A stretch of DNA of 23,390 nt from a virus (taxonomy: Duplodnaviria > Heunggongvirae > Uroviricota > Caudoviricetes), in the IMG/VR virus record IMGVR_UViG_2537561977_000031, positions 1-23,390 of that record; one strand, given 5' to 3'. The notes beneath the pieces were generated by a model. That model made no database searches. It saw only the letters and a list, made by a program, of their open reading frames with translations, and was not told where the DNA came from. Within the stretch, counting starts at the first letter, position 1. Each line of letters begins with the position of its first letter. The translations under genes and the position numbers were made by a program. Below are positions 1,458 to 22,606 of the stretch, piece by piece.

Positions 1458-2081
1458 TTAAAATTCGAATTGTCTCGCCCGAAGGCTTTTCAGCATTGGT
1501 TTTGCCCGTTCGAAAAGGGCGCTTGCTTGGTCAAGTCGTGTCGCCTCCCTTAGCAGTACATCTCTGTTTTTCGTCACCGTGTAAAAAGTTTCAAACGCGA
1601 TGTCATACAGCTTGCTCGTGTATGATGAGTTCAGTTCCTTCAATATCGGGTACAGACGTTTGCAGATGTCCTGCGCATTCTCCATCTGTACCTGCATATA
1701 GCAAAGGAGGATGATTTCTTCGTCTGTGAATTGCTGCGCTGGTTGCATGCTGCGAAGTTTCTTTTCGCACTCGATGAAGTATCGGCGTATCTGGCGGCCT
1801 TTTTCGTTACGCTCGACCATCGCCGTTTCTTTGGCTGTATCGAGGGTGAGGTGATAGTCTTTGCTACGGCGATCGCCTCCACGTCCTTTGATCCCCCTGT
1901 TTTGGTGAACCAAAATGTAATCGACATCAACGGCAAAGCCGTATTCTGTTATGCGATTTTTAATCCATGTAGAGAAGTCACGACGTACTTCCAAAAATTC
2001 GTGTAAATCACGGGCATTAACGAGAAGAGTTGTTTCGTTGGATATAGTGCCGTTGAATACGGGGATGAGTTGACTGGTCAT
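1458..2081 (-). CDS. Phage antirepressor-like protein (AntA/AntB-type N-terminal domain), 207 aa
   Basis: ORF with AAGGAC SD before the ATG; N-terminal LIPVFNGT...LLVNARDLHEFLEV..DFSTWIKNRITEYGF pattern resembling AntA/AntB family; family assignment from memory. Confidence 0.5.
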   Translation of the reverse strand: MTSQLIPVFNGTISNETTLLVNARDLHEFLEVRRDFSTWIKNRITEYGFAVDVDYILVHQNRGIKGRGGDRRSKDYHLTLDTAKETAMVERNEKGRQIRRYFIECEKKLRSMQPAQQFTDEEIILLCYMQVQMENAQDICKRLYPILKELNSSYTSKLYDIAFETFYTVTKNRDVLLREATRLDQASALFERAKPMLKSLRARQFEF

Positions 2082-2230
2082 TTTTATGTCCTTTGCATTT
2101 GTTCAGATAGCCCTGTGTTCAGCAGGGCGGTCAGGTACTTGAACACCGTGCAAAGTCGGCCCGTATCCTTAACCTTTCGGCTGTTTTTCGGTATACGCGC
2201 TACCCGACCATATCTGAAAAATGGACATAA

Positions 2231-2402: not shown

Positions 2403-3185
2403 TCATGCAGCCTTTCGCCCTCCTTCGATGAGTTCCTCTATTTTGTGCACTCCAGCCTCGTTGTACCGAAATGTTTCAACCTGCTTGTCATTGTGCGCCG
2501 ATTTGTCGATGAACCACTTCCCGTACTTTTCTGTTTTGAGCATGTAGGTGTTGGCTATGCGTCCTACCTTGTTGGCTGAAATACCGTAGCGCTGGCCGAC
2601 TTCCGTAGCAGAGTAGTAGTGCTCTGAGATAGCTGGCAGAGGTACAACATCGCGACCAACAATCGGGTTGAACACTCCAGCTACTGCTGCCTGCTTTGAT
2701 TCTGAGGACAGATTCGGGAACATATTCACCAGTCGATCCGCCACGTTCAAAGCTATTTCCATGGCTCGCGCACGGTCTAGGCTACTTTCTGGTTGCGGTA
2801 CTGGTTGAGGATGGTTGGCAACCTTTTCGCGCTGATTGAAGTAGCCGTCCTCCAGTTTTTCGAACACGTCCCATGCCTGATCCGTTTCGAGCATCTTCGC
2901 GTGACGGGCGGCTCCGCGCTCTGTCCAGAGGATGAGGTGGCGTGCATTTGGGGCAATTTTCACAAAGTAGTTTAAAGCTACTTTGTGTTTTAGCGCGCGC
3001 AGCTCGTCACCAACGACCTTGTAGAAGTGTACCCCCTCAACAAAGCGCGACTTGTTTTCATGATGGTTTTGCCGGATGCGCACAACATCCGTTCCGTACA
3101 ACTGCGCCAATAGTTCGCTGGTGATGACGTTGGTTTGTTTGTAGGTGATTGGTGAAAGTGTTTCAACAGAAATTTGAGCATTCAT
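2403..3185 (-). CDS. ORF6N-domain antirepressor-like protein, 260 aa
   Basis: GAGGA SD before ATG; N-terminal domain with HHENKSRF...[22 protein letters not shown], close paralog of the N-terminus of ORF 17062..17748. Confidence 0.7.
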   Translation of the reverse strand: MNAQISVETLSPITYKQTNVITSELLAQLYGTDVVRIRQNHHENKSRFVEGVHFYKVVGDELRALKHKVALNYFVKIAPNARHLILWTERGAARHAKMLETDQAWDVFEKLEDGYFNQREKVANHPQPVPQPESSLDRARAMEIALNVADRLVNMFPNLSSESKQAAVAGVFNPIVGRDVVPLPAISEHYYSATEVGQRYGISANKVGRIANTYMLKTEKYGKWFIDKSAHNDKQVETFRYNEAGVHKIEELIEGGRKAA

Positions 3186-6157: not shown

Positions 6158-6453
6158 TTATACCTCTGAATCAATATCAACCTGGTGGTGAGCAATGGTT
6201 TCAACCATGTACTGGATGTGTTCTGCCATGCGCTCCTGAAACTCAACATCGTCATCAAACGCACGGGTAATGGCTTTTTTGCTGGCCCCGTGGCGTTGCA
6301 AATGATCGATGCATAGCGATTCAAACAGGTGCTGGGGCAGGCCTTTTTCCATGTCGTCTGCCAGTTCTGCCTCTTTCTCTTCACGGGCGAGCTGCTGGTA
6401 GTGACGCGCCCAGCTCTGAGCCTCAAGACGATCCTGAATGTAATAAGCGTTCA
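6158..6453 (-). pseudogene. gam: gam remnant, N-terminally truncated by IS1 (retains residues matching lambda Gam from [14 protein letters not shown]... to the C-terminus)
   Basis: Minus-strand translation upstream of the 64-aa track ORF continues in frame as ...[40 protein letters not shown]... up to the IS1 boundary; no start codon remains. Confidence 0.85.
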
Positions 6454-6468
6454 GGTAATGACTCCAAC

Positions 6469-6972
6469 TTACTGATAGTGTTTTATGTTCAGATAATGCC
6501 CGATGACCTTGTCATGCAGCTCCACCGATTTTGAGAACGACAGTGACTTCCGTCCCAGCCTTGCCAGATGTTGTCTCAGATTCAGATTATGTCGCTCAAT
6601 GCGCTGAGTGTAACGCTTGCTGATAACGTGCAGCTTTCCCTTCAGGCGTGATTCATACAGCGGCCAGCCATCCGTCATCCATACCACGACCTCAAAGGCC
6701 GACAGCAGGCTCAGAAGACGCTCCAGTGTGGCCAGAGTGCGTTCACCGAAGACGTGCGCCACAACCGTCCTCCGTATCCTGTCATACGCGTAAAACAGCC
6801 AGCGCTGACGTGATTTAGCACCGACGTAGCCCCACTGTTCGTCCATTTCAGCGCAGACAATCACATCACTGCCCGGTTGTATGCGCGAGGTTACCGACTG
6901 CGGCCTGAGTTTTTTAAGTGACGTAAAACCGTGTTGAGGCCAACGCCCATAATGCGTGCACTGGCGCGACAT
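6469..6972 (-). CDS. insB: IS1 transposase InsB
   Basis: 167 aa ORF, ...[19 protein letters not shown]... Confidence 0.9.
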
Positions 6973-7166
6973 CCGACGCCATTCATGGCCATATCAATGA
7001 TTTTCTGGTGCGTACCGGGCTGAGAGGCGGTGTAAGTGAACTGTAGTTGCCATGTTTTACGGCAATGAGAGCAGAGATAGCGCTGATGTCCGGCAGTGCT
7101 TTTGCCGTTACGCACCACGCCTTCAGTAGCGGAGCAGGAAGGACATCTGATGGAAATGGAAGCCAC
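6891..7166 (-). CDS. insA: IS1 InsA
   Basis: 91 aa, [43 protein letters not shown]... Confidence 0.9.
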
Positions 7167-7221
7167 GCAAGCACCTTAAAATCACCATCATACACTAAAT
7201 CAGTAAGTTGGCAGCATTACC

Positions 7222-7374
7222 CACAATCAGACTGATACGCTTGGCTTCATCTTTTGTCAGGTCGCGAGGCAGGTTGCCAATGGTGACGATAAGATCTCCG
7301 CGCAATGGAATCGGCAGTTCAAATGTTTTTACACCAACCTGTACGTCAGCTACCGCCTTCTTCTTAGGTGCCAT
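7222..7374 (-). pseudogene. Unknown early-left gene, C-terminally truncated by IS1 (51 codons remain)
   Basis: GGAG SD 9 nt before ATG at 7374; MAPKKKAVADVQVGVKTFELPIPLRGDLIVTIGNLPRDLTKDEAKRISLIV then reads into IS1. Confidence 0.4.
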
Positions 7375-7715
7375 CTTTTTACGCTCCTTTTTTTATTTAC
7401 ATCACCAACTGACACATTAATCTCACCATTCTGGTAGGAGATAAATTTATCAATAGCACTTTGCATTCGGCTTTTGTATGCCTGCAAAGATGATTCAGAA
7501 GGTTTGCTTTCTGCTGAGTCTGCGTACGAACTTGCTAAGTTGGCAACGCTATAATCACGGATATCGGCATCGGTGAAATCCGACCCAAGAACAGTAAGAA
7601 GGCGCAGGGAAGAGTCACGGAGATTGCGGGCTGTAGCATCATTGACGATACCAAGCTCAGGAAGCATCTGTAAGAAGTCCTGAAATGCTTTGATGGTGTA
7701 GCTTTTGGTTTGCAT
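7350..7715 (-). CDS. Hypothetical protein (121 aa), Arg-rich C-terminus; no SD, ATG directly follows a hairpin/T-run
   Basis: Track ORF; compositionally protein-like; start context unusual. Confidence 0.4.
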   Translation of the reverse strand: MQTKSYTIKAFQDFLQMLPELGIVNDATARNLRDSSLRLLTVLGSDFTDADIRDYSVANLASSYADSAESKPSESSLQAYKSRMQSAIDKFISYQNGEINVSVGDVNKKRSVKRWHLRRRR

Positions 7716-7741
7716 AAAAAAGCCTCATACAGTTGATGAGG
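7715..7741 (-). terminator. Candidate terminator of the cI operon (or structured element at the start of the 121-aa ORF)
   Basis: Minus-strand hairpin GCCTCAT-CAACTGT-ATGAGGC followed by TTTTT. Confidence 0.35.
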
Positions 7742-7904
7742 CAATACTAATTTGATCGTCAAAACAAATCAAGACCCAAGAAACGATCGTTGATTCCTTT
7801 CTTTGTGACAATACAGTCAAATCAAGTTTTACAAGGATTACTTTTCTTCGATTACATTAAAGGCCGCACTTCTGCGACCATCCATCACCAAAATGTCTCT
7901 TCAC

Positions 7905-8246
7905 TCATCCGAAGAAGCAGCAATCCGGGTCAGCACGCACAAGCTCAAGCGCATCAGTCAGCGAAAGTTCAGTACTGTACTGATGCCATTTCATATCCTT
8001 CCGCATCCAATAGATTTTCCATCTATCCAGAGAACGTATGTACTTGATTCTTGCTGATGGCAGGATGTTTGTTTCACCTGGGTTGCCCTGCCACACGGGG
8101 CGCTGTTCGCCGATATCTATCGTTTGGTCATTGATGCTATAAACAATATCCAGTTCATTGCGGATATGTTCAGGCGGCCTTATGCTTTCAATGAATTGGT
8201 GAACTTCTTTTTTGACCGCTTGATATTCAAGGTCAGTGAACGCCAT
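7905..8246 (-). CDS. Hypothetical protein (113 aa) directly downstream of cI, same strand
   Basis: Strong SD GAGGAGG 4-5 nt before ATG; only 37 bp after the cI stop; occupies the position of lambda rexAB. Confidence 0.7.
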   Translation of the reverse strand: MAFTDLEYQAVKKEVHQFIESIRPPEHIRNELDIVYSINDQTIDIGEQRPVWQGNPGETNILPSARIKYIRSLDRWKIYWMRKDMKWHQYSTELSLTDALELVRADPDCCFFG

Positions 8247-8283
8247 CTATCCTCCTCACCCAAACGTTTCTTCAGGCCACTGG

Positions 8284-8991
8284 TTACCAGCTATGCGATG
8301 ACCAGAATACTCTGCCAATAATCCTTACGGTTTTATGAAATTCATCTCTATCCATTACTTCATCCGGGTACTCTTCGCGATTTATTGATCTGATTATCAC
8401 CGATGTAGGAGTGGCGATTAATGTTTTTACTCGCAACAAATCAGACTGGCAAATAGCGTAGGTTTTACCATCTCTGATGGTGGTATCTTGTGTGTTAACA
8501 CCAACAACATCGCCATCGTGAAGAGTTGGTTCCATGCTTTGACCTGTTACCCTTACCAGCTTGGCAGAACTTTCAGTTACCCCCATCTTTTTCAGATAGT
8601 ACTTTCTGAAAACCAAAGAGAACTCTGATGATTCTTCTATCTCGCAGCTACCGCTTCCAGCCGAAAGCGAAACGTTAAGAAGAGGCAATGCGACAAACTC
8701 GTCATCGTTTTTTTTAATGTCTTCCCATACCACAGCTTTTAAAGATGACTCACGGATATTGGATGGTTCTTCATGTGTACCATCCCTCATTTCACCAATA
8801 CCAGAACTAAGCCATTCAGGGCGTACTTTTAAAGCATTAGCTAACTCAACCATCTTGCGAGATCCGTTTGTTTTACCGGATGACATCTTCTGTATGGCTG
8901 GCTGAGATATTCCAACCATGTCCGCAAGCTGTGATTGCGACACCCCTGCCGATCTCATGGCTGCATTTAGTCTTTCTGCGAATGTTTTCAT
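8284..8991 (-). CDS. cI: CI-type prophage repressor (N-terminal HTH, C-terminal S24 LexA-like peptidase); start likely at Met 8991 (track ORF begins at a TTG at 9021)
   Basis: HTH segment QSQLADMVGISQPAIQKMSSG; peptidase motif GQSMEPTLHDGD with downstream Lys; divergent from cro. Confidence 0.85.
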   Translation of the reverse strand: MKTFAERLNAAMRSAGVSQSQLADMVGISQPAIQKMSSGKTNGSRKMVELANALKVRPEWLSSGIGEMRDGTHEEPSNIRESSLKAVVWEDIKKNDDEFVALPLLNVSLSAGSGSCEIEESSEFSLVFRKYYLKKMGVTESSAKLVRVTGQSMEPTLHDGDVVGVNTQDTTIRDGKTYAICQSDLLRVKTLIATPTSVIIRSINREEYPDEVMDRDEFHKTVRIIGRVFWSSHSW

Positions 8992-9102
8992 ATCCACAAA
9001 TCTATAACTACGGTTATCCAAAGTAAAATAATAAAGGTTATTGCTATCTTTTATAACTTGGGTTATCCTTGGTTATAAGTAATGGCTGAAAGAGGTATGC
9101 TC
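8992..9102. promoter_or_regulatory. Divergent operator/promoter region (OR-like) between cI and cro
   Basis: Two 14-bp palindromes ATAAC-N4-GTTAT at 9004-9017 and 9051-9064 plus further GTTAT/TTATAA half-sites. Confidence 0.5.
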
Positions 9103-9327
9103 ATGAATTTAGTAATTCAACGAGCCTTGAAGATTGTCGGTAGTCAAAAGCGGCTTGCCGACAAGTGTGGTGTAACGCAGCCAGCAGTACACAAATGGCT
9201 GAAAGGCGGGCAGGTTTCTCCAGAGAAAGTTACCGCCATCGTTAACGCCACTGGAGGGCAGATCAAGGCTTACGAAATTCGCCCAGATTTACCACACCTG
9301 TTTCCAAAACCGAATCAGGCAGCATAA
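9103..9327 (+). CDS. cro: Cro-like HTH regulator (74 aa; alternative starts at 9082/9097)
   Basis: SD AGAGG 7 nt before ATG 9103; HTH QKRLADKCGVTQPAVHKWLKG; position divergent from cI. Confidence 0.7.
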   Translation: MNLVIQRALKIVGSQKRLADKCGVTQPAVHKWLKGGQVSPEKVTAIVNATGGQIKAYEIRPDLPHLFPKPNQAA

Positions 9328-9334
9328 GTAACAC

Positions 9335-9380
9335 CGCTATTTTCACAATGGGCATTCGTCCTACGTCGCTGACAAAGCGA
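9335..9380 (+). promoter_or_regulatory. Candidate nutR-like site: boxA-like CGCTATTTT and boxB-like hairpin TCGCT-GACAA-AGCGA
   Basis: 5-bp stem with GACAA pentaloop (P22-type boxB loop) located between cro and cII. Confidence 0.3.
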
Positions 9381-18077: not shown

Positions 18078-18844
18078 ATGCCGTAATTATTGCCAACGCA
18101 GAAATCGTGCCGATTGAGTTTAATGGCGAGCGTGTTGTTACGTATCAAATGATTGCTGATATTCACGGGGTTCCAGTAGCCACTATTCAAAATGGCTATG
18201 CGCGAAACTCTGAGTATTTCATAGACAGGGAAGATACATATTTTATTGATTTTCATGAAAATACCTTTAGAAGGGGTTTTGAAATTCCTCCTCGTGGCAT
18301 GCGAGTTTTCACTGAATCAGGCTATTTGATGCTGGTTAAAACCCTGCGCGACGAGACGGCGTGGAGAGTGCAACGTGAGCTTGTTCGCAATTATTTTCGT
18401 GGCCAAAAAGAAGATAAGTCAGCCTTGCCCGACTTCACAAACCCTGCTGAAGCCGCCAGAGCGTGGGCAAACGAATATGAGCAGAAAGTGAAGCTGGAGC
18501 AACAACTCGCGATTGCCGCACCTAAAGTTGAGTTTGCCGATCGCGTTGGCGAGGCCAGCGGAATTTTGATTGGAAACTTTGCAAAGGTTGTTGGTATTGG
18601 CCCAAACAAACTGTTTGCGTGGATGCGTGATCACAAAATCCTTATTGCTTCAGGTTCCCGGCGCAATGTGCCAATGCAGGAATATATGGATCGCGGCTAT
18701 TTCACAGTGAAAGAAACAGCGGTCAACACAAATCACGGAATACAGATATCGTTCACCACAAAAATCACCGGGCGTGGTCAACAGTGGCTGACCAGAAAGC
18801 TGCTCGATAACGGAATGCTGAAAGTAACAGGGGAGGCTGCATGA
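18074..18844 (+). CDS. Phage antirepressor (ORF6N-like N-terminal domain plus KilAC C-terminal domain), 256 aa
   Basis: SD AAGGAGG; C-terminal FADRVGEASGILIGNFAKVVGIGPNKLFAWMRDHKILI...RRNVPMQEYMDRGYFTV resembles KilAC; ATG overlaps Rha stop. Confidence 0.7.
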   Translation: MNAVIIANAEIVPIEFNGERVVTYQMIADIHGVPVATIQNGYARNSEYFIDREDTYFIDFHENTFRRGFEIPPRGMRVFTESGYLMLVKTLRDETAWRVQRELVRNYFRGQKEDKSALPDFTNPAEAARAWANEYEQKVKLEQQLAIAAPKVEFADRVGEASGILIGNFAKVVGIGPNKLFAWMRDHKILIASGSRRNVPMQEYMDRGYFTVKETAVNTNHGIQISFTTKITGRGQQWLTRKLLDNGMLKVTGEAA

Positions 18845-19203
18845 ATGAGTACAGATTCACGCTTCCATACCCACCATCGCTGAATACCTACTGGCGAAGA
18901 CGGGGAAGCCAATACTACATCAGCGATAAAGGCCAGAAATACCGAAAAGACGTTCAGCAAATCATCCGCCAACTCAAGTTAGATATTTTCACCAAAGCAC
19001 GACTCCGCATCAAAGTCATCGCAGACGTTCCAGACTCCCGCCGCCGCGACCTCGACAACATCCTGAAGGGGCTACTCGACTCTCTTATCCACGCCGGATT
19101 TGCGGAAGACGACGAGCAATTCGATGACATTCGCGTAATTCGTGGTGTGAAAGTACCAGGCGGAAGGCTTGGAATAAAAATCACCGAACTGGAGAACGTA
19201 TGA
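18841..19203 (+). CDS. rusA: RusA-type Holliday junction resolvase
   Basis: 120 aa; FTLPYPPSLNTYWRRRG...DSRRRDLDNILKGLLDSL...GGRLGIKITE. Confidence 0.85.
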   Translation: MNEYRFTLPYPPSLNTYWRRRGSQYYISDKGQKYRKDVQQIIRQLKLDIFTKARLRIKVIADVPDSRRRDLDNILKGLLDSLIHAGFAEDDEQFDDIRVIRGVKVPGGRLGIKITELENV

Positions 19204-19388
19204 ACGCCACAATTCAAACGATACCAGAGCTTCTTATCCAGACACGAGGCAATCAGACCGAAGTGGCGAGGATGCTTTCCTGCGCAAGAGGAACAGTGCT
19301 CAAGTACAACCGAGACAGCAAAGGCGAGCGTCACGTAATAGTTAACGGCGTCCTGATGGTCAAACAGGGCAAGAGGGGAAGACGATGA
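19200..19388 (+). CDS. ninH: NinH-like small DNA-binding protein
   Basis: 62 aa; ...IPELLIQTRGNQTEVARMLSCARGTVLKYNRD... resembles lambda NinH. Confidence 0.65.
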   Translation: MNATIQTIPELLIQTRGNQTEVARMLSCARGTVLKYNRDSKGERHVIVNGVLMVKQGKRGRR

Positions 19389-20008
19389 GACTCGAAAGCG
19401 TAGCTAAATTTCATTCGCCAAAAAGCCCGATGATGAGCGACTCACCACGGGCTACGGCTTCTGACTCTCTTTCCGGTACTGATGTGATGGCTGCTATGGG
19501 GATGGCGCAATCACAAGCCGGATTCGGAATGGCTGCATTTTGCGGTAAGCATGAACTCAGCCAGAACGACAAACAAAAGGCTATCAACTATCTGATGCAA
19601 TTTGCACACAAGGTATCGGGGAAATACCGTGGTGTGGCAAAGCTCGAAGGAAATACTAAGGCAAAGGTACTGCAAGTGCTCGCAACATTCGCTTATGCGG
19701 ATTATTGCCGTAGTGCCGCGACGCCGGGCGCAAGATGCAGAGATTGCCACGGAACAGGTCTGGCAGTTGATATAGCCAAAACAGAGCAGTGGGGGAGAGT
19801 TGTCGAGAAAGAGTGCGGAAGATGCAAAGGTGTCGGCTATTCAAGGATGCCAGCAAGTGCAGCATATCGCGCTGTAACGATGCTAATCCCAAACCTCACC
19901 CAACCCACATGGTCACGCACTGTTAAGCCGCTGTATGACGCTCTGGTGGTGCAATGCCACAAAGAAGAGTCAATCGCAGACAACATTTTGAATGCGGTCA
20001 CACGTTAG
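19385..20008 (+). CDS. Q: Late antiterminator Q (lambda-type, 207 aa)
   Basis: MRLESVAKFHSPKSPMMSDSPRATASDSLSGTDVMAAMGMAQSQAGFGMAAFCGKHELSQNDKQKAINYLMQF... matches lambda Q as I recall it. Confidence 0.95.
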   Translation: MRLESVAKFHSPKSPMMSDSPRATASDSLSGTDVMAAMGMAQSQAGFGMAAFCGKHELSQNDKQKAINYLMQFAHKVSGKYRGVAKLEGNTKAKVLQVLATFAYADYCRSAATPGARCRDCHGTGLAVDIAKTEQWGRVVEKECGRCKGVGYSRMPASAAYRAVTMLIPNLTQPTWSRTVKPLYDALVVQCHKEESIADNILNAVTR

Positions 20009-20050
20009 CGGCATGATTGCCATGGATGGCAACATCTTAACGGCATGATA

Positions 20051-20079
20051 TTGACTTTTTGAATAAAGTTGGGTAAATT
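20051..20079 (+). promoter_or_regulatory. Late promoter pR' (lambda-type) with adjacent qut region
   Basis: -35 TTGACT (20051-20056), 17-nt spacer, -10 TAAATT (20074-20079); flanking sequence matches lambda pR' as I recall it. Confidence 0.7.
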
Positions 20080-20268
20080 TGACTCAAGAATGGCAGGTTT
20101 ATATCCGTTCACATTCTTTCGGTTTTTTACCCACCTCATCTTTAAGTTGTGACTGCTCCCCGCCCTGTCGGGCGAGGGTTTACGGCGTTTTTCGCTAAGC
20201 GCACTGACATGCGCATCATAAACTCGGGAGCACATAGGAATAGAGCCTGCTTTCGGGATTTTTTATTT

Positions 20269-20343
20269 GGGTCAGTCGTATAAAGGTCATTACGGAAGGC
20301 TGTTAACCTTCTTATCGTGGTTCGAGTCCACGCTGTCCCGCCA
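20269..20343 (+). tRNA. tRNA-like gene, anticodon GTT (Asn) by manual fold; one U-U mismatch in acceptor stem and a 3-bp D stem
   Basis: Acceptor GGGTCAG/CTGTCCC, anticodon stem GAAGG/CCTTC with loop CTGTTAA, T arm CGTGG-TTCGAGT-CCACG, discriminator G, encoded CCA. Confidence 0.5.
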
Positions 20344-20348
20344 AATAT

Positions 20349-20424
20349 GCTGGTTTAGCTCTAATGGTAGAGCAGTCGCCTTGTAAGCGAATGGGTAGCG
20401 GTTCAAGTCCGTTAACCAGCACCA
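20349..20424 (+). tRNA. tRNA gene, anticodon TGT (Thr) by manual fold
   Basis: Perfect 7-bp acceptor GCTGGTT/AACCAGC, D arm GCTC-TAATGGTA-GAGC, anticodon loop CTTGTAA, T loop TTCAAGT, encoded CCA. Confidence 0.65.
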
Positions 20425-20540
20425 TAACTGAGCCGTAGCCACTGGCTATCCTGAATTCATCAGTGACAGTTACGCTGCGGCCTTCTTTTCCCCTTCCCAA
20501 TATAAGAACTACGCCATCCGTTATTTGCGGAGGTGAGGCT

Positions 20541-20756
20541 ATGAAATCCATGGACAAAATTTCAACGGGCATTGCCTACGGCACCTCCGCCGGCAGTGCC
20601 GGCTACTGGTTTTTGCAGTGGTTGGATCAGGTCAGTCCGTCACAGTGGGCTGCGATTGGTGTGCTGGGAAGTCTGCTTCTGGGGCTTCTGACTTATCTGA
20701 CAAATCTGTATTTCAAAATAAGAGAAGACAAGCGTAAGGCTGCGCGGGGAGAGTAA
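20541..20756 (+). CDS. S: Phage-21-type pinholin S21 with dual start (MKSMDK...), 71 aa
   Basis: [71 protein letters not shown]; SD GGAGGTGAGG before ATG 20541. Confidence 0.85.
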
Positions 20757-20760
20757 TTCA

Positions 20761-21177
20761 ATGACACAAAACTATGAACTGATTGTGAAAGGGATCCGCA
20801 ATTTTGAGAATAAAGTTGCGGTAACTTTAGCGTTACGGGACAAAAAACGCTTTGACGGTGAAATTTTTGACCTGGACATCTCGCTGGACCGTGTTGAAGG
20901 TGCCGCGCTGGAGTTTTATGAGGCAGCGGCCAGAATGAGAATCAGACAGGTATTCCTGGATGTTGCTGCCGGGTTATGTGAAGGGGATGAGCAGTCGCCG
21001 GAAAAGCGCCCCATAATTTTAGAGGCGCAGAATGTGTGGATAACCTACAAAGGAAAGCTACCGGGAAGAATTACTGGTTCTCTGAAGACGCCACCGACGG
21101 CATTGCGGTCAGAAAAAGATGATATTGAATCGCCCATTGAAAAACTGGAGAAAATTGTCGGTGCTGATTCCTTCTGA
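20761..21177 (+). CDS. Hypothetical protein (138 aa) inserted between holin and endolysin
   Basis: Track ORF beginning 5 nt after the holin stop; no family recognised. Confidence 0.6.
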   Translation: MTQNYELIVKGIRNFENKVAVTLALRDKKRFDGEIFDLDISLDRVEGAALEFYEAAARMRIRQVFLDVAAGLCEGDEQSPEKRPIILEAQNVWITYKGKLPGRITGSLKTPPTALRSEKDDIESPIEKLEKIVGADSF

Positions 21178-21185
21178 AGATGAAA

Positions 21186-21215
21186 AACGCCGCGATGAGC
21201 AGTTTGCGGCGTTTT
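21186..21215 (+). terminator. Weak candidate terminator after the 138-aa gene
   Basis: Hairpin AACGCCGC...GCGGCGTT followed by TTTT. Confidence 0.3.
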
Positions 21216-21608
21216 ACGATTATTGCATTGAAGTTACTCGCAGGAATTTTGTGAAGATTTTTGAGGAGGGTAAATCTCTTCAGTAAGCTTAATGGCGGAC
21301 GCTGCAATTAATTCAGGAAGGTCCGCAAGGTCATCTGTCAGTGGATATGATGAAAAAATCGGCGGCAGTTCTGTTAAGAAGCGCTTTAACTAATTCCTTT
21401 TCCTTCTCCGGCAACAAGTTGATTAGAGCTACGACTGCTTGCCTGAGTGCGATTAAATCAGCAAAAGTTTGTTTTGGTAGATTTGTGTAATCCGTAGTCA
21501 CCTCTGTGTTTATCAGATTGACATCCTCCTCCCGCCAGTGCCCATCACTGGCGAGGTAAGATTTAACATATCCGGGGATTTGAAGCCGATAAATCCTGAT
21601 AAATATCC

Positions 21609-22142
21609 ATGAACGTAAAAATCAGATATGGCCTGTCGGCTGCCGTTCTGGCACTGATTGCTATCGGTGCGCCTGCGCCTGATATTCTCGACCAGTTTCT
21701 GGATGAAAAAGAAGGTAACCACACTACGGCATACCGCGATGGTTCCGGCATCTGGACCATCTGTCGGGGTGCCACGATGGTGGATGGTAAACCCGTTTTT
21801 CCCGGTATGAAACTGTCGAAGGAAAAATGCGACCAGGTTAACGCCATTGAACGTGATAAGGCGCTGGCATGGGTGGAGCGCAATATTAAAGTACCACTGA
21901 CCGAACCACAAAAAGCGGGTATAGCGTCATTTTGCCCCTATAACATTGGCCCCGGTAAGTGTTTCCCGTCGACGTTTTATAAGCGGCTGAATGCCGGTGA
22001 TCGTAAGGGCGCATGCGAGGCGATTCGCTGGTGGATAAAAGATGTTGGGCGCGATTGCCGCATACGTTCAAATAACTGCTATGGACAGGTTATTCGTCGT
22101 GACCAGGAAAGCGCATTAGCCTGTTGGGGGATAGATCAATGA
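21609..22142 (+). CDS. R: SAR endolysin (T4-lysozyme-type muramidase with N-terminal signal-anchor-release segment)
   Basis: N-terminal [16 protein letters not shown] weakly hydrophobic segment; catalytic-region pattern [22 protein letters not shown]; no obvious SD upstream. Confidence 0.8.
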
Positions 22143-22606
22143 GCAGAGTCACCGCGATTATCTCCGCTCTGGTTATCTGCATCATCGTCTGCCTGTCATG
22201 GGCTGTTAATCATTACCGTGATAACGCCATTACCTACAAAGAGCAGCGCGACAAAAACGCAAGAGAACTGAAGCTGGCGAACGCAACCATTACTGACATG
22301 CAGCAGCGCCAGCGTGATGCTGATGCACTCGATGCTAAATACACGAAGGAGTTAGCTGATGCGAAAGCTGAAAATGATGCTCTTCGGCGCAAGCTTGATA
22401 ATGGTGGTCGGGTGCTCGTCAAAGGAAAATGCCCTGTGCCATCCTCAGCCGAAACCTCCAGCGCCTCCGGCATGGGCAATGATGCCACCGTCGAACTCTC
22501 TCCAGTTGCTGGACGAAACGTTCTCGGTATCCGGGACGGAATCATCAGCGACCAGACAGCATTGAGAATGCTTCAGGAGTACATCAGGACTCAGTGCCTG
22601 AAATAA
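22139..22606 (+). CDS. Rz: Rz i-spanin
   Basis: [49 protein letters not shown]... matches lambda Rz N-terminus; ATG overlaps endolysin stop. Confidence 0.9.
22359..22565 (+). CDS. Rz1: Rz1 o-spanin lipoprotein, embedded in the +1 frame of Rz
   Basis: [23 protein letters not shown] lipobox followed by Pro-rich segment [11 protein letters not shown]. Confidence 0.8.

Follow-up and report, generated by a model that had tools for sequence, protein, structure and literature searches.

What do two tRNA genes do between the late promoter and the lysis genes of a lambdoid prophage, and why should they be genes for asparagine and threonine tRNAs? The question is raised by a stretch of 23,390 nucleotides from a virus of the class Caudoviricetes (IMG/VR record IMGVR_UViG_2537561977_000031, positions 1 to 23,390), referred to here as the window, in which a tRNA-Asn(GUU) gene and a tRNA-Thr(UGU) gene follow a lambda-type antiterminator gene Q, its late promoter pR' and a terminator resembling tR'. 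The Asn/Thr pair is not new: it is the well-known and widespread late-operon cassette of the phage 21/Sf6 type, and as a genome feature it offers nothing that was not already on record. Its value is that of a worked example, and two studies from 2025, on the nuclease P2 Old and on the PARIS nuclease AriB, offer one reason for both isotypes. The best explanation, taken as a whole and held to be probable, is that the two genes provide Q-dependent, nuclease-resistant replacement tRNAs, a role that for tRNA-Asn is inferred from its sequence.

The two tRNA genes and their integrity

A scan of the whole 23.4-kb window with ARAGORN calls exactly two tRNA genes, both on the plus strand, which are arranged as follows.

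20269..20343, plus strand: tRNA-Asn(GUU), 75 nt, CCA encoded, discriminator G73, U4·U69 mismatch; called by ARAGORN and Rfam
20344..20348, plus strand: spacer AATAT of 5 nt between tRNA-Asn and tRNA-Thr
20349..20424, plus strand: tRNA-Thr(UGU), 76 nt, CCA encoded, G27·A43 mismatch (anticodon stem of 4 bp), pyrimidine at position 14; called by ARAGORN and Rfam

Both genes are full-length matches to the Rfam tRNA model RF00005, with 55.3 bits for Asn and 63.2 bits for Thr at a gathering score of 29. Both have the 7-bp acceptor stem, the D, anticodon and T arms, an anticodon loop of 7 nt in which position 33 is U and position 37 a purine, and a T-loop of the form GGTTCRA, and the only non-standard pairs in the Rfam alignment are 4:69 and 13:22 in Asn and 27:43 in Thr. 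Between 19950 and 20600, on either strand, Rfam families other than these two tRNAs give no match down to E = 1. The initial annotation had folded the genes by hand as Asn (GTT) and Thr (TGT), and ARAGORN and Rfam agree with it on both, neither gene being rejected or given another anticodon. It had also pointed to a mismatch in the acceptor stem of the first tRNA, and this can be read directly: GGGUCAG is set against CUGUCCC, so that U4 faces U69, the pair being marked as non-standard in the Rfam alignment.

Asparaginyl-tRNA synthetase of Escherichia coli recognizes G34, U35 and U36 together with G73, and threonyl-tRNA synthetase recognizes G1-C72, C2-G71, G35 and U36; read from the sequence, all of the former are present in the window Asn and all of the latter in the window Thr. 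Neither tRNA is a copy of a host gene, the identity being 63% between the window Asn and asnT and 72% between the window Thr and thrU. Derivation of the tRNA-Asn from host asnT or from phage T5 was considered and ruled out on the strength of this low identity to asnT and of the different anticodon arm of the T5 Asn. An attachment-site remnant was likewise ruled out, as both genes are complete, CCA included, and lie within the late operon, far from any integrase.

The fold of each gene was followed through its family. Among 26 distinct Asn variants, 10 of the 21 pairs are changed on both sides (the pattern used to retrieve these loci fixes part of the D arm and of the anticodon loop), and among 21 Thr variants the same is true of 6 of the 21 pairs. 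None of 500 shuffles reaches the covariation score in either case, and slid controls collapse for Asn and Thr alike. These both-sided changes support both cloverleaves. The U4·U69 position is unpaired in 22 of the 26 distinct Asn variants and is kept on three acceptor-stem backgrounds (the E. coli/Salmonella, Klebsiella and Mixta types) that carry compensatory differences at 5:68, 6:67 and 7:66. On these grounds a pseudo-tRNA or decay, to which the mismatch had pointed, was ruled out, and U4·U69 is a maintained or tolerated trait of the phage tRNA-Asn family; 4:69 is C-G only in Asn copies from large tRNA arrays. Although a minor detail, U4·U69 may reward biochemical study.

The window Asn is identical to the copies in phages 21, Sf6 and ST64T, and the window Thr matches that of phage 21 at 75 of 76 positions, with an identical anticodon arm and a lone difference in the D-loop (T versus C at position 14). 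At this position (window 20362), the phage tRNA-Thr family mostly has C, the window and a few others have T, and G occurs once; the Thr of phage P1 and host thrU have A14, as is normal in tRNAs. The pair can be taken as two intact, functional phage tRNA genes with the same confidence as the best explanation as a whole, of which this forms a part.

Why asparagine and threonine

P2 Old is the effector of the classic P2-lambda interference and is lethal because it severs the anticodon arm from host tRNA-Thr(UGU) (PMC12445682, 2025). Thr(UGU) is cut fastest, while Lys(UUU), Asn(GUU) and Val(UAC) are cut more slowly, and the substrates share a paired CNG motif at positions 28-30/40-42 (PMC12445682). 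Phage tRNA-Thr(UGU) species rescue cells from P2 Old, and that of phage 21 protects, resisting the nuclease through a shorter anticodon stem and the changes C28U/G42A; restoration of ACA decoding by phage tRNA-Thr(UGU) was shown with alleles other than that of phage 21 (PMC12445682). The AriB nuclease of PARIS attacks Lys(UUU) and Thr(UGU) and, after them, Asn(GUU), its cut falling between positions 40 and 41 beside U36AAU39, and the Lys, Thr and Asn variants of T5 jointly neutralise PARIS (PMC12409363, 2025). The anticodon arms of the host and window tRNAs compare as follows at the positions that these nucleases read (28-30/40-42; 36-39; bases 40 and 41).

Host thrU: CUG/CAG; UAAU; C and A
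Window Thr, as in phage 21: UCG/CGA; UAAG; C and G; with the G27·A43 mismatch
Host asnT: CGG/CCG; UAAU; C and C
Window Asn: AAG/CUU; UAAC; C and U

The window Thr has every sequence feature tied to Old resistance: its anticodon is UGU, the paired CNG motif is gone and the anticodon stem is shorter (PMC12445682). The phage 21 allele, for which resistance and rescue were shown by experiment, departs from it only at D-loop position 14. The window Asn agrees with the features proposed for a resistant allele: its anticodon is GUU, and it is changed both at the paired CNG motif read by Old and at the AriB site (U39 and the 40/41 step). Both window alleles thus lack the reported cleavage determinants of P2 Old and AriB.

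The tRNAs, as the first genes of the late operon directly behind tR', would be transcribed from pR' only when Q permits readthrough of tR', apart from leak through the terminator. Host tRNA-processing enzymes would then cut them from the late transcript with CCA already encoded. The tRNA-Thr(UGU) would replace, in nuclease-resistant form, the one host tRNA by which ACA is read, and would also serve the phage genes, in which ACA is about twice as frequent as in the host. To judge by sequence only, the tRNA-Asn(GUU) would most likely substitute in the same way for host tRNA-Asn, which P2 Old and AriB both attack as a secondary target. In the window itself the prophage is defective, and the cassette is probably silent unless the terminator leaks or a lambda-type Q acts in trans. 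A broader proposal is put forward tentatively, as one that may well fail: the Asn(GUU)-Thr(UGU) pairing in lambdoid phages and P1 would reflect the shared targets of the OLD-family Toprim nucleases (P2 Old and AriB). The Asn, including its U4·U69 and its altered anticodon stem, would then be a second resistant replacement, and the cassette a two-part counter-defence module of temperate Gam-encoding phages against P2-type prophages and satellites.

Several points weigh against replacement by nuclease-resistant tRNAs. In the sources consulted no experiment on the window Asn allele was found, the one Asn tested being the unrelated one of T5, and the Klebsiella-type Asn variants (8 of the 26 distinct ones) have CAG/CUG with C28:G42, by which the paired CNG is restored. 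There is no tRNA-Lys(UUU), the main target of AriB, so that the cassette alone could not defeat the PARIS system that was studied. Timing may limit any benefit in cis, since tRNAs behind tR' need Q, ACA makes up 5 of the 12 Thr codons of the Q gene, and Gam sets off Old at an early stage. Moreover, the published rescue used plasmid-expressed tRNAs, and the prophage is degraded, with the insertion sequence IS1 beside gam, ISEc20 in a replication gene and a split primase-like gene.

The alternative that survives best, although it is itself somewhat unlikely, is pure codon supplementation, in which the tRNAs would top up the host pool (ACA for Thr, AAC and AAU for Asn) during late protein synthesis. 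Codons were counted in the annotated genes of a near-identical prophage in E. coli FDAARGOS_944 and in 34 genes of E. coli K-12. Per 1000 codons, ACA occurs 15.5 times in the early and 12.4 times in the late genes of the prophage, 7.0 times in the K-12 genes and 3.7 times in ribosomal genes, which makes it 1.8-2.2 times commoner in the prophage than in the K-12 sample. The same enrichment is seen in phage SfI (17.3% versus 7.1% in the host, units as printed; PMC3636060). Additionally, supplementation would find support in the single copy of the tRNA-Thr(UGU) gene in E. coli (PMC12445682) and in the capsid gene of phage L, where 24 of 25 Asn codons are AAC (PMC8022706). The Asn codons of the prophage, on the other hand, are not in excess, as their 37.5-40.8 per 1000 against 36.6 in K-12 is not a significant difference and the AAC share, and with it the AAC/AAU ratio, is unshifted; the SfI authors likewise found that the Thr tRNA fits codon supply and the Asn tRNA does not (PMC3636060). 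The enrichment of ACA is greater in early than in late genes, yet the tRNAs are in the late operon. Also on the opposing side are the four asn tRNA genes of E. coli K-12, of which asnT was compared here. Codon usage accounts for the Thr tRNA, not for the Asn tRNA, and it leaves unexplained why both alleles depart from the host at exactly the anticodon-stem positions that Toprim nucleases read.

For this copy only, it is conceivable but improbable that the cassette, although intact, is an inert passenger that is never expressed in a defective prophage riddled with insertion sequences. Relative to the closest prophage, IS1 has removed the region between gam and about 7221 and taken the gam start codon, ISEc20 and the split primase-like gene add to the damage, and the tRNAs lack a promoter of their own. 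Leak through the terminator, or the Q of a superinfecting lambda-type phage, could nevertheless give expression, and both tRNA sequences are at or near the family consensus. In lambda, pR' lies outside repressor control. It is least credible of all that the tRNAs serve mainly as RNase P/RNase E sites parting the leader from the lysis and structural mRNA, for although the terminator of the leader directly precedes them and a conserved hairpin and then the first protein gene come after, lambda and many relatives keep the hairpin without any tRNAs at that junction, and processing alone would not need the anticodons, identity elements and encoded CCA that are all conserved.

The cassette and its setting

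The following features surround the two genes.

19385..20008, plus strand: late antiterminator gene Q of the lambda type, 205 of 207 amino acids identical to lambda Q; Pfam Antiterm PF03589, 191 bits
20051..20079, plus strand: late promoter pR', TTGACT-17 nt-TAAATT; consensus match, aligning with lambda pR'
20087..20268, plus strand: late leader (6S-RNA equivalent), with a tR'-like intrinsic terminator at its end (hairpin 20223-20257, U-tract 20259-20268)
20426..20486, plus strand: conserved linker of about 61 bp, hairpin-forming, the 3' boundary of the cassette by alignment
20541..20756, plus strand: S21-type class II holin (pinholin), first protein gene of the late operon, 68 of 71 residues identical to phage 21 S; Pfam PF04971 Phage_holin_2_1

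The lambda-type Q and pR' that had been placed upstream at the outset are borne out by these matches. In a consensus scan of both strands from 19900 to 20800, pR' is the sole sigma-70-like site; its -35 hexamer begins at 20051, which is where the interval of the initial annotation starts, and its two mismatches to lambda pR' are shared by phage HK446. Transcription is inferred, by analogy with lambda, to start near 20087. The leader diverges from lambda 6S RNA about 10 transcribed bases in and realigns with it from the 3' half of the tR' hairpin through the U-tract, while by alignment its body has no relation to that of lambda. At its end the terminator forms a stem of 10 bp (20223-20257) ahead of AUUUUUUAUUU, and the base right after the U-tract is G1 of the tRNA-Asn. 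A promoter belonging to the tRNAs themselves, like pT of phage 933W, was rejected, as the consensus scan has none and there is no space for one between the U-tract and the Asn 5' end; with no separate promoter found, transcription from pR' is expected. Among 5,426 complete E. coli genomes just 2 have the full leader (20085-20262), and no phage record does. A piece from its interior, 45-60 nt long (about 20139-20200; a GC-rich hairpin and then a T-run), is found in about 385 E. coli genomes and also in Klebsiella and Providencia phages, one of which has three copies.

Downstream, 116 bp separate the end of tRNA-Thr from the holin ATG, and the open reading frames (ORFs) across 20149-20572 span only 44-97 amino acids, and every one of them overlaps one of the tRNA genes or that of the holin. 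A toxin ORF cannot fit in such a gap, and the early estimate of some 116 bp to the holin with no toxin gene was accurate; the absence of stx is normal for lambdoid prophages. The linker at 20426-20486 is nearly invariant in lambda (which is without the tRNAs), HK446, phage 21, Sf6 and about 100 other loci, whatever the holin type. The 121-nt stretch that contains it (20425-20545) folds better than shuffles (z = -3.35), and variation among loci is too low for a covariation test of the linker. It may mark a mosaic boundary, be a site at which the RNA is processed, or act like a terminator.

When the window is aligned from Q to the holin with lambda, HK446, phage 21 and Sf6, the result is a cassette of about 158 bp, bounded on the left by the terminator U-tract and on the right by AACTGAGCCGTAGCC...GCTGCGGCCTTCT. 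Lambda has the right-hand boundary sequence, with unrelated DNA of similar length instead of the tRNAs. The antiterminators found with the cassette are of the Q21 type (phage 21, Sf6, ST64T), the lambda type (the window, HK446) or a Klebsiella type, and the holins are of the S21 or the lambda type; given such varied Q and holin partners, the cassette is an independently assorting unit.

The interval matches 156 phage records, many of them at 96-99% identity, and tRNA-Asn and tRNA-Thr are annotated there in phage 21, Sf6, SfI, BTP1, Kapi1, mEp506 and others. The pair stands right behind the late terminator in the phage 21 record, and the Sf6 record calls it "similar to phage 21". The FDAARGOS_944 prophage is 99.7% identical to positions 7221-22251 of the window, with both tRNAs annotated by PGAP, and 347 of the 5,426 complete E. 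coli genomes have the 156-bp pair at close to its whole length. The pair is carried by hundreds of E. coli and Salmonella prophages, and the cassette is ordinary for lambdoid prophages. The SfI paper describes the tandem Asn(GUU)/Thr(UGU) genes downstream of Q and reports one or both also in Sf6, ST64T, PS3 and phage 21 (PMC3636060), and the phage L paper treats the same slot (PMC8022706). Literature searches on BTP1 and on lambdoid phage tRNAs in general gave no useful expression data for the cassette.

The wider family was sought with a pattern built on the unusual D arm of the Asn gene, in two collections, one with a single genome per species and the other of viral contigs. Matches in the former come from Escherichia, E. 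albertii, Phytobacter, Shimwellia and Mixta, and from two contigs labelled as gut metagenome-assembled genomes (Segatella copri and Collinsella), and the latter yields at least 120 loci. Asn followed by Thr is the array at 93 of 127 sampled loci, the rest including Asn-Gly(UCC), Asn-Phe-Thr-Arg(UCU) and a few large arrays. In three IMG/VR contigs (L054, L063 and L046) a tRNA-Asn with the same unusual D arm, TCGTATAAAGGTTATTACGG, lies in arrays of 5-13 tRNA genes (5 in L046, up to 13 elsewhere); these Asn copies are without an encoded CCA, and their 4:69 is C-G in L054 and L063 and U·G in L046. Sequence comparison suggests that the lambdoid Asn descends from an older phage tRNA lineage. The relatives that share the odd D arm are uncultured viral contigs with large arrays, which no cultured phage matches above 80-90%.

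Some loci depart from the usual arrangement. In E. coli EC187792 (locus L011, 1770-2261) and four other genomes, an HNH endonuclease gene lies between a lambda-type pR' leader and the Asn-Thr pair; T5 has HNH homing endonuclease genes among its tRNA genes. In phage ST64T (locus L004, 1276-1360), and equally in phage L, 4 nt are deleted from the anticodon arm of the second cassette tRNA, which receives no ARAGORN call. It was reported as tRNA-Leu(UAA) in the phage L paper (PMC8022706) and may be a decayed Thr gene.

The prophage and comparison with known systems

To judge by its sequence, the prophage is defective. IS1 (InsA and InsB ORFs, about 6455-7222) abuts gam (6158-6454, minus strand), whose first codon is Leu, not Met, and replaces a segment that in FDAARGOS_944 holds kil, cIII, an Nmad5-family gene and a remnant of an antiterminator gene. 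The transposase gene of ISEc20, of the IS110 family (10291-11487, minus strand), breaks a helix-turn-helix gene in the replication region, and a large toprim-domain, primase-like gene (12260-15165, plus strand) is divided into ORFs of 578 and 410 amino acids, being intact at 968 amino acids in FDAARGOS_944.

Other loci of the window were noted in passing. By Pfam, the holin is followed by a DUF1327 ORF, an endolysin of the phage lysozyme family and an Rz-family gene. The interval between holin and endolysin (20761-21608, plus strand) consists of the DUF1327 (YdfR-like) ORF of 138 amino acids and about 430 bp without an annotated gene; in phage 21, S and R adjoin, and the YdfR-family counterpart in FDAARGOS_944 is marked by PGAP as an incomplete pseudogene. 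On the plus strand, Rfam finds the Hfq-binding RNA isrK (16826-16899, 68.3 bits) and C4 antisense RNA (16926-17010, 68.7 bits), immediately followed by an ORF for a phage antirepressor, Ant (17062-17748, plus strand), which together look like a P1/P7 immI-like antirepressor control unit within the nin region. Between ninE and this antirepressor region lies a pair of a HigA antitoxin and a RelE/ParE-family toxin (16142-16755, minus strand), as annotated in the FDAARGOS_944 prophage. Rfam also gives a full-length match to sRNA-Xcc1 (2121-2209, minus strand; 68.3 bits, gathering score 53), whose neighbours, according to the same near-identical prophage, are an antirepressor-family gene (1458-2081, minus strand) and an ORF6N-domain gene (2403-3185, minus strand).

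Among known systems, the cassettes of phage 21 and Sf6 are the closest to that of the window, being alike in the position right after tR', the gene order, the 5-nt spacing and the conserved 3' linker, with an identical Asn and a Thr one base off; the holin downstream of the window cassette is also of the phage 21 type. The difference from phage 21 is that the window has a lambda-type Q and pR', not Q21, joined to the cassette through a rare leader. In HK446, too, lambda Q stands with the cassette, but there the leader and the S are those of lambda.

The initial annotation had likened the locus to the slot that holds tRNA genes and stx in Shiga toxin (Stx) phages, while observing that the isotypes differ from theirs, and phage 933W agrees on both counts. 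Its slot between Q/pR' and the holin also holds a short tRNA array, the order being pR', ileZ-argN-argO, stxA2B2, further cargo and then S. Its isotypes are Ile, Arg and Arg, against Asn (GTT) and Thr (TGT) in the window; its tRNA genes are annotated with a putative promoter of their own, its Q is of another type, and about 5 kb of toxin and other cargo follow the tRNAs, where the window has 116 bp. Of the components of an Stx-converting module, the window has neither stxA/stxB nor the ileZ-argN-argO set.

Phages P1 and P7 also have adjacent tRNA-Asn and tRNA-Thr genes with the same anticodons in the same order, separated by a 2-nt spacer, in a different genomic context. The P1 Thr shares 83% identity with that of the window but keeps the paired CNG motif, and the P1 Asn, in contrast to that of the window, is a canonical-looking tRNA without a 4:69 mismatch, the two being 59% identical. 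Compared with T5, the window cassette is a two-gene unit in the late operon of a temperate lambdoid phage and not a large array with its own promoters, it is without a tRNA-Lys, and its Asn and Thr anticodon arms differ in sequence from those of T5. What it shares with the T5 tRNAs and with those that resist P2 Old is the two target anticodons, on stems that in the window are altered where the nucleases read.

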